From positions 1 to 11,763 of IMG/VR virus record IMGVR_UViG_2700989507_000007: a stretch of DNA of 11,763 bases. One strand, given 5' to 3'. The stretch is from a virus. Taxonomy: Duplodnaviria; Heunggongvirae; Uroviricota; Caudoviricetes. Every line of letters starts with the position of its first letter. The stretch's first letter is position 1. This document shows positions 11,056 through 11,461 of the stretch, in pieces. Made by a program: the position numbers and the translations under genes. The notes under the pieces were generated by a model. That model saw only the letters and a program-made list of their open reading frames with translations. It was not told the DNA's origin and made no database searches.

Positions 11056-11222
11056 TTTTTTTGTTTGCTGTTTATTAAAAACACTTCTGCATGGTGAATC
11101 CCCCTGTGCGGAGGGGCGATCAGCAACCAGGTATATGGGATAATCGCGGATTCAGGTGCTGATACTGAATTCACCGGGAGGCACCCGGCACCATGCAAGA
11201 AAAAGAATGTGCATGCAAACAT

Positions 11223-11246
11223 GCCCCTCTCCGGAGGGGCTTTTTT
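11223..11246 (+). terminator. strong rho-independent terminator
   Basis: GCCCCTC-TCCG-GAGGGGC (7-bp GC-rich stem) followed by six T. Confidence 0.65.
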
Positions 11247-11372
11247 ATGGGTAAAAAATGCCCGAATGGGTTCGGGCAATAGCATGAGATACTGATATTG
11301 TTGTGTTGTTATCGTGTGGATTTTAACCAGGGTTTATCAGGCTGCGCAACTGCGTGGCCTTTTTTCATTTCT

Positions 11373-11419
11373 TGGGCTGTAGTCCCCGTGTGTCATTCAG
11401 GCTTCCGGACTACAGCCCA
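11373..11419. repeat. 13-bp inverted repeat (TGGGCTGTAGTCC ... GGACTACAGCCCA) with a 21-nt spacer, ~45 nt upstream of the nanS-p-like start
   Basis: Seen directly; perfect complementarity; no adjacent T-tract. Confidence 0.5.
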
Positions 11420-11461
11420 CTCCATATCTGATTTAATACACTATCCCGGCCGGGAGGAATA

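Follow-up and report, generated by a model that had tools for sequence, protein, structure and literature searches.

The stretch under study comprises about 400 bp (positions 11056-11461) near the end of an 11,763-nt Caudoviricetes sequence (positions 1 to 11,763 of IMG/VR record IMGVR_UViG_2700989507_000007), which was analysed as a whole and is referred to here as the window. It lies between a DUF3927 gene (10888-11055) and the plus-strand gene nanS-p, the N-terminus of which matches Pfam DUF1737, and it ends at 11461 because the ATG of nanS-p is at 11462. Two RNA genes were found in it: a plus-strand gene for a small RNA (sRNA) of the STnc100 family (11060-11252, Rfam RF02076), orthologous to EcOnc06 of E. 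coli O157:H7 Sakai, and a minus-strand agvB gene (11314-11253, Rfam RF02702) for an anti-sRNA, or sponge, of GcvB. Two further structured elements (11339-11365 and 11373-11419) lie between them and nanS-p. We are highly confident that the stretch is an already known module, in which an STnc100-family sRNA and AgvB form a convergent pair. Hfq-RNA crosslinking in Sakai located convergent sRNA genes of lambdoid prophages between the moron coding sequences after PR' and a conserved phage open reading frame (ORF) (Tree et al. 2014, PMC4104026). An earlier reading of this DNA, made from the letters alone and called here the sequence-only reading, had placed the stretch in a slot between late cargo and nanS-p, which was upheld, with TerB-like and DUF3927 genes upstream and nanS-p downstream. 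Its further idea, that of a remnant of an exchanged cassette, holds only insofar as the module is mosaic, with variable segments swapped between the conserved blocks that flank them.

The STnc100 match reached 145.8 bits (gathering score 47; E=4.8e-33) and extended over model positions 1-206 of 206. In Sakai, EcOnc06 of prophage Sp17 was detected as an RNA of ~177 nt on Northern blot and gave an Hfq peak in crosslinking and analysis of cDNA (CRAC), and an EcOnc06 homolog 5' of ECs1961 is listed in Table S2 of the same study (Tree et al. 2014, PMC4104026); we identified ECs1961 as the nanS-p gene of Sakai Sp10. The sequence of the EcOnc06 Northern probe, once reverse-complemented, is identical to window positions 11131-11165, and therefore the predicted plus-strand RNA has already been seen experimentally. 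Identity to the Sakai prophages was 99.0% for Sp10 and 98.8% for Sp17, and the 501 bases around the stretch showed at least 99% identity in 488 complete E. coli records, the same query being covered to at least 80% in 626 of 5426 genomes. Expression and Hfq binding are shown at these 99%-identical Sakai loci and, by this identity, would hold for the STnc100-type RNA of the window as well. The short plus-strand transcript ending near 11246 that the sequence-only reading had deduced is thus supported, in the form of a discrete sRNA that ends at the terminator at 11223-11246. The RefSeq records of identical loci have no RNA gene annotated at the stretch, with the consequence that scans of raw sequence will keep rediscovering the module.

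Five GC-rich stem-loops had been claimed for the stretch, and all of them are present where they had been placed, more than shuffled sequence predicts. They comprise a CCCC/GGGG stem-loop (11101-11104/11113-11116, plus strand), a CCGGG-AGGCA-CCCGG stem-loop (11174-11188, plus strand), GCCCCTC-TCCG-GAGGGGC followed by T6 (11223-11246, plus strand), a TGCCCGAA-TGGG-TTCGGGCA hairpin (11259-11278) and a perfect 13-bp inverted repeat (11373-11385/11407-11419) that was recovered by inverted-repeat search. A terminator scan of 10000-11763 returned 6 terminator-like sites, compared with 1.7 +/- 1.5 in dinucleotide shuffles. The list was real but passed over the closing helix of the STnc100 core (11089-11096/11189-11196), a hairpin at 11148-11155/11165-11172 and a terminator-like hairpin at 11339-11360 followed by T5. 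Moreover, the hairpin given as 11260-11277 exists but had been taken as a plus-strand element, whereas its T-run lies on the minus strand and marks a minus-strand terminator; since all hairpins had been read as plus-strand features, the separate convergent gene agvB (11253-11314) was missed. The predicted folds of 11060-11252 (plus strand; -76.4 kcal/mol, z = -4.15), 11315-11480 (plus strand; -53.9 kcal/mol, z = -3.64) and 11314-11253 (minus strand; -13.7 kcal/mol, z = -3.75) were each matched in stability by 0 of 200 shuffles. An Rfam search and a covariation analysis had been suggested as checks, and hairpins neither conserved nor covarying in homologs had been named as the outcome that would speak against a structured RNA. 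Both checks succeeded, and the adverse outcome did not occur: STnc100 and AgvB were both found above their gathering scores, the STnc100 structure is conserved in homologs, and covariation was seen in its closing helix, in its terminator and in one of the internal hairpins. The other, weak Rfam matches in the region (OmrA-B, Phe_leader, RsmY and Arrc14) were all far under their gathering scores and are attributed to terminator-like features.

The structured core of the plus-strand RNA (11089-11196), delimited by the Rfam alignment and by minimum free energy (MFE) folding, is closed by a helix of 8 bp, GCAUGGUG (11089-11096) pairing with CACCAUGC (11189-11196), which encloses three hairpins at 11100-11116, 11148-11172 and 11174-11188. 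Homologs were collected by scanning IMG/VR with an STnc100 core pattern, which gave 120 loci and 77 unique 460-nt segments of varying similarity; the pattern itself covered one hairpin and half of the closing helix, so a second sample was anchored on the nanS-p start, with 86 unique upstream regions. RNAalifold on 60 unique STnc100 regions recovered the closing helix, the three hairpins and the terminator. Among 29 pairs, 9 change on both sides, mostly in the hairpin at 11148-11172 (for example, AU:33/GC:23) and in the intrinsic terminator (11223-11246; a 7-bp GC stem, the loop UCCG and U6), the stem of which compensates in homologs, for instance from CCCCTC/GAGGGG to CTCCTC/GAGGAG. Compensated variants of the closing helix were found in the nanS-p-anchored resample (GCATGATG/CATCATGC, ATATGGCG/CGCCATAT, GCGTGGTG/CACCACGC and GCATAGTG/CACTATGC). 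The hairpins at 11100-11116 and 11174-11188 never vary and give evidence neither for nor against pairing.

Between the core and the terminator lies a type-specific variable segment, AGAAAAAGAAUGUGCAUGCAAACAUG (11197-11222, plus strand), which starts with four A-R-N triplets, and A-R-N motifs have been described as Hfq sites (Tree et al. 2014, PMC4104026). In the alignments this segment of ~25 nt is wholly different between family types while the core and the terminator are kept, and it parallels the variable 5' region of anti-sRNAs. The segment is taken as the likely candidate for the seed and for the Hfq distal-face site. Co-evolving pairing of the variable 3' segment with the 5' leader gave no general signal over 23 leader/segment combinations (mean z = -0.41), and the identical variable segment was found with different 5' leaders. 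With respect to distribution, an Rfam scan of 15 diverse loci, which had been fetched by the STnc100 core pattern, detected STnc100 in every one. It was also present in 75 of the 86 unique nanS-p upstream regions by a strict pattern, and the eight others shown have variant cores; an STnc100 element thus lay upstream of essentially every nanS-p sampled. Tandem STnc100 copies were observed in two loci (L007, 3121-3311 and 3589-3798; L088, 1987-2178 and 2454-2662), and a third (L042) has two core matches, at 1486 and 1761.

Two candidate 5' ends were recognized for the plus-strand RNA. A candidate -10 box, CATAAT (11044-11049, plus strand), within the 3' end of the DUF3927 ORF, would set the start near 11056 and give an RNA of ~190 nt; we prefer this box, with low certainty. 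Most family members conserve a homologous CACAAT box, located ~51-56 nt upstream of GCATGG. The alternative promoter (-35 TTGATT at 11052-11057, an N18 spacer and -10 TAAAAA at 11076-11081, plus strand) would set the start near 11088 and give ~158 nt. Divergent members have TTGACx-N17-TTAATC where a TTGnCT-N18-TAAAAG box sits in others, an observation that had favoured the nearer promoter. The EcOnc13 Northern probe occupies -40 to -6 upstream of GCATGG, inside the nearer TTGnCT-N18-TAAAAG box, and therefore at least one family member starts upstream of that box. Northern sizes of family members are 177-247 nt (Tree et al. 2014, PMC4104026), exceeding the 158-180 predicted from the nearer box, and these sizes and the EcOnc13 probe ruled it out as the only promoter.

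On the minus strand, the AgvB match scored 96.5 bits (gathering score 56), with 62 of 62 consensus positions identical, while the related AsxR model gave 43 bits, under its 63-bit threshold. The first 50 nt of AgvB, which were the part tested, are exact in Sakai Sp10 and Sp17, the prophages in which AgvB1 and AgvB2 are located (Tree et al. 2014, PMC4104026); EcOnc01a, which is AgvB1 in Sp10, is 60 nt long and is destabilised without Hfq (Table S2 of Tree et al. 2014, PMC4104026). The RNA consists of a 5' end at 11314, a GcvB-target mimic AACAACACAACAA (11310-11298), a terminator stem (11278-11259) and a U-tract (11258-11253), and the GcvB R1 target consensus CACAACA occupies AgvB nt 10-16 (window 11305-11299). 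Pairing between the 5' 25 nt and K-12 GcvB was predicted at -19.9 kcal/mol, compared with -14.2 +/- 2.9 kcal/mol for shuffled sequences, 16 of 500 shuffles being as good; a full-length duplex fold ignores intramolecular structure, and only the 5' 25-nt test was used. AgvB pairs with the GcvB R1 seed, relieves dppA repression and improves competitiveness in bovine terminal rectal mucus (Tree et al. 2014, PMC4104026), and crosslinking, ligation and sequencing of hybrids (CLASH) with RNase E returned 82 AgvB-GcvB hybrids. By analogy with the identical Sakai RNA, the AgvB of the window would sequester GcvB and derepress dppA. AgvB is the founding phage-encoded anti-sRNA that rewires host amino-acid and peptide uptake and helps E. 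coli O157 to compete in bovine rectal mucus, and its recognition here marks this prophage as a carrier of that trait.

As in the anti-sRNA class, a 3' portion of ~42 nt that includes the terminator is conserved in AgvB, and its gene converges on that of the plus-strand sRNA, a distance of 6 nt separating their 3' ends (11246 and 11253). The 5' end of AgvB is a mapped primary start (Tree et al. 2014, PMC4104026). Upstream of it, a putative agvB promoter can be read on the minus strand (-35 TTGCGC at 11349-11344, N18, -10 TAAAAT at 11325-11320, N5 and C(+1)), and this geometry is kept in variants, which have TATTAT or TAAAAT with TTGCGC. In addition, the U-tract of the plus-strand terminator and the A-run before the minus-strand terminator are complementary (GGGGCTTTTTTA / TAAAAAATGCCC, window 11236-11263); therefore, read-through of either RNA extends its own terminator helix and becomes antisense to the partner. 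In Sp4-/Sp15-type relatives, the Northern probe for EcOnc08/21/42 is plus-strand sequence over a conserved hairpin, and the probe site, seen in L006, L009, L025, L031 and others, lies ~150 nt after the STnc100 core, at ~11320-11355 of the window. A minus-strand RNA of ~271 nt therefore spans this hairpin in these relatives and, judged by its length, probably covers the nanS-p leader and start as well, in antisense.

Two elements occupy the interval between agvB and nanS-p (11315-11461). The former is a second terminator-like hairpin (11339-11365, plus strand; stem 11339-11347/11352-11360, then T5), which overlaps the agvB -35 box. All 86 unique nanS-p upstream regions contain its core, TGCGCAAYWG, and most variants retain the 6-bp core stem and the T-run. 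Since a conserved T-run is of no use to a minus-strand promoter, the hairpin was read as a plus-strand terminator, and it may act as a back-up terminator, protecting nanS-p and the lysis genes from upstream transcription. Rfam gave no family for it, only a sub-threshold OmrA-B match of 20.9 bits. The latter is a nanS-p leader stem-loop (11373-11419, plus strand; a 13-bp perfect stem with a 21-nt loop by inverted-repeat search and MFE fold). Among 28 unique leaders, 87.8% of cells pair in this stem against 33-46% with a slid partner, ten pairs change on both sides, a number that 0 of 500 shuffles reach, and the lower helix is 97.9% paired. The frequent G-U pairs fit a plus-strand RNA only. Almost all variants are predicted to form the stem, and a stable leader stem was found in 86 of 86 unique regions. 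It has no U-tract and is therefore not a canonical terminator; with low confidence, we regard it as an element of mRNA processing or stability. Rfam gave no family match for 11373-11419, and the literature found on the locus mentions neither this stem-loop nor 11339-11365. Sakai Sp10 (L122) has a 4-nt insertion in the 3' arm (~11413; GGACTACAGCCAGCCCAC vs GGACTACAGCCCAC), which shortens the leader stem, and thus the stem varies even between 99%-identical prophages. Closer to the gene, a palindrome TCCCGGCCGGGA (11444-11455, plus strand) overlaps the Shine-Dalgarno sequence of nanS-p (GGGAGGA, 11452-11458; ATG 11462), and its helix is 91% paired, without covariation.

The module would work as follows, and we hold this explanation as a whole to be very probable. 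In lambdoid prophages of pathogenic E. coli, a convergent sRNA pair sits between cargo (moron) genes of the Q-dependent late promoter and nanS-p. On the plus strand, an STnc100-family sRNA of ~160-190 nt, running from ~11056-11088 to 11246, would combine a multi-hairpin core, a single-stranded type-specific segment and an intrinsic terminator; it would bind Hfq and most likely act in trans through base pairing of the variable segment. On the minus strand, a 60-62-nt AgvB would be transcribed from its own promoter to its own terminator, and its 5' AACAACACAACAA, a mimic of GcvB target sites, would sequester the R1 seed of the core sRNA GcvB, relieving the repression of dppA and other transporters. 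The second plus-strand terminator would bar lysogen transcription from nanS-p and the lysis genes while letting Q-modified polymerase pass, and the leader stem-loop of nanS-p would act in mRNA processing or stability.

A further possibility is that the module forms an undescribed lysogeny/lysis switch that couples GcvB sponging to prophage state, which we consider unlikely, though not negligibly so. A Q-antiterminated late transcript must pass the STnc100 terminator to reach nanS-p and so would carry a perfect 62-nt complement of AgvB. Such a transcript is antisense to AgvB, and the back-up terminator lies on the AgvB -35 box; therefore, induction could shut off the sponge and mop it up. If so, strong convergent agvB transcription in the lysogen and the tandem terminators would silence nanS-p and the lysis genes, and the leader stem-loop (11373-11419) would represent a novel cis-element acting in the processing or stability of the late mRNA.

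Other explanations of the stretch were weighed against the convergent sRNA pair. The sequence-only reading had proposed a 29-aa Cys-rich ORF, and a plus-strand transcript serving as a small mRNA for this peptide or for another micro-ORF is hardly credible. The ORF does exist as written on the plus strand (ATG 11193, stop 11280-11282), a GGGAGG sequence stands 11 nt upstream of its ATG, and some EDL933 STnc100 copies have ribosome footprints, with ribosomal coverage values up to 3.2. It was nevertheless rejected as a gene, neither the frame nor the peptide being conserved and its setting being structurally implausible: from the conserved ATG, homologs encode 39 distinct peptides of 2-68 aa, and the 29 aa shrink to 20 aa in the closest relatives, where the T-run of the terminator differs in length by 1 nt. 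The ATG is base-paired inside the covarying closing helix, where one homolog has ACG for ATG and compensates for it on the partner strand, and GGGAGG, the only Shine-Dalgarno-like sequence, lies within an invariant hairpin. The stop is 34 nt past the U-tract of the terminator, and therefore the sRNA would be a non-stop message; moreover, ribosome coverage is low for most EDL933 STnc100 copies. The 29-aa ORF is a by-product of RNA-structure constraints.

The entire 400-bp stretch could instead be a cis-acting leader of nanS-p, resembling an attenuator or riboswitch and holding no independent genes, which we judge very improbable. Hairpins and terminators are typical of attenuators, the stretch is directly upstream of nanS-p, and its distal elements (11339-11419) track with this gene; for that distal part, the leader idea of the sequence-only reading stands. 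It fails for the STnc100 part, as the family also occurs without nanS-p downstream, in about half of the sampled STnc100 homologs, and in tandem copies. Sakai has discrete Hfq-bound RNAs of defined size, one of the hairpins is part of a minus-strand gene that has been shown to act in trans, and no Rfam cis-regulatory family matched. Improbable, too, is a view of the hairpins as back-to-back terminators and recombination scars at a moron boundary, with the RNAs as functionless by-products. Morons classically bring their own terminator, the region is mosaic and STnc100 is without an established function, all of which would fit; yet a 100-nt multi-hairpin core upstream of the terminator, superfluous for termination, is conserved and covarying, AgvB acts on a demonstrated target and affects fitness in bovine rectal mucus, and both RNAs are among the abundant Hfq ligands.

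Several points nevertheless weigh against the convergent-pair explanation that we prefer. The expression evidence for both RNAs comes wholly from near-identical and homologous loci. The literature found gives no established target or phenotype for any STnc100-family RNA, the sole effect in it being one overexpression effect of EcOnc27/sRNA103, and we infer trans-acting base pairing as the most likely mode of action of the STnc100-type RNA. The two candidate 5' ends predict lengths of ~190 or 158 nt, which bracket the ~177 nt of the Northern blot. The proposed -35 box of agvB, TTGCGC, is weak, and the ~271-nt RNA of the Sp4-/Sp15-type relatives covers the promoter region, showing that a minus-strand start can be further upstream.

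Comparison with known systems places the window copy close to the Sakai loci. AgvB of Sakai (EcOnc01a/b in Sp10/Sp17) agrees with that of the window in the CACAACA mimic, the terminator, the position and the convergent orientation, with no detectable difference in the RNA itself, whereas the host strain and the upstream prophage differ, the window carrying an IS3-family insertion as well as a methylase gene located between Q and the tRNAs. Likewise, EcOnc06 (Sp17/Sp10) shares the core helices, the variable-segment type, the terminator and the probe target of the window STnc100. The window STnc100 scores 146 bits, below the 208 bits of the Stx2-phage copies; its internal variable hairpin is shorter, and the conserved block preceding the core is shortened, leaving only 34 nt between the end of the cargo ORF and the core. 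The EcOnc27 (sRNA103)/AsxR pair downstream of stx2B in Sp5/933W shows the same architecture, an STnc100-type plus-strand RNA converging on an anti-sRNA upstream of nanS-p; there, however, the cargo is stx2AB rather than TerB-like and DUF3927 genes, AsxR has another 5' variable region and targets FnrS, and EcOnc27 is longer (235/247 nt), with a variable segment different from that of the window. PasD1/PasD2 of enteropathogenic E. coli (EPEC) E2348/69 are Hfq-dependent structural homologs of STnc100 that can sit directly upstream of a sialate esterase gene but are too divergent for BLAST, with different seed regions and targets, a comparison made here by published statement alone (Zhu, Shabalina and Storz, 2026 preprint). 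In EDL933, eleven STnc100 copies are known, nearly all of them transcribed and one confirmed by Northern blot, and the Stx2-phage copy is EcOnc27/sRNA103. The EDL933 ribosome-profiling (RIBOseq) entries (STnc100_4 and others) carry coordinates that disagree with NZ_CP008957, so none of them could be assigned to the window copy. STnc100 RNA has also been found in outer-membrane vesicles, and sigma-70 binding has been reported at Salmonella STnc100 copies.

Upstream of the module, the window carries a RusA gene (7467-7826), a Q-like antiterminator gene (7823-8386) and, between the latter and the tRNAs, an N6/N4 DNA methylase gene of 352 aa (8960-10018). The methylase gene is extra cargo and is lacking in the loci of E2863 and Sakai Sp10, which match the stretch in other respects. 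Both phage tRNA genes are placed in the late region: one with anticodon CAT (10059-10134), which is tRNA-Ile by annotation in relatives, and tRNA-Arg TCT (10215-10291). A terminator-like hairpin (10304-10323) comes after both tRNAs, just before the TerB-like cargo gene (10388-10891). A minus-strand antisense ORF of 193 aa (10704-11285) runs across the TerB-like gene, DUF3927 and the STnc100 RNA and extends over part of AgvB; in the Sakai record it corresponds to the hypothetical protein ECs_1960, and both are probably spurious gene calls. The entire window, including the IS3-family insertion, occurs in no complete E. coli genome of the collection, the best coverage being 89%. This insertion (2438-3651, minus strand) breaks the early prophage region and carries two overlapping transposase ORFs with HTH_Tnp_1 and rve domains, together with the ALIL frameshift pseudoknot at 3254-3370 (Rfam, 120.9 bits).

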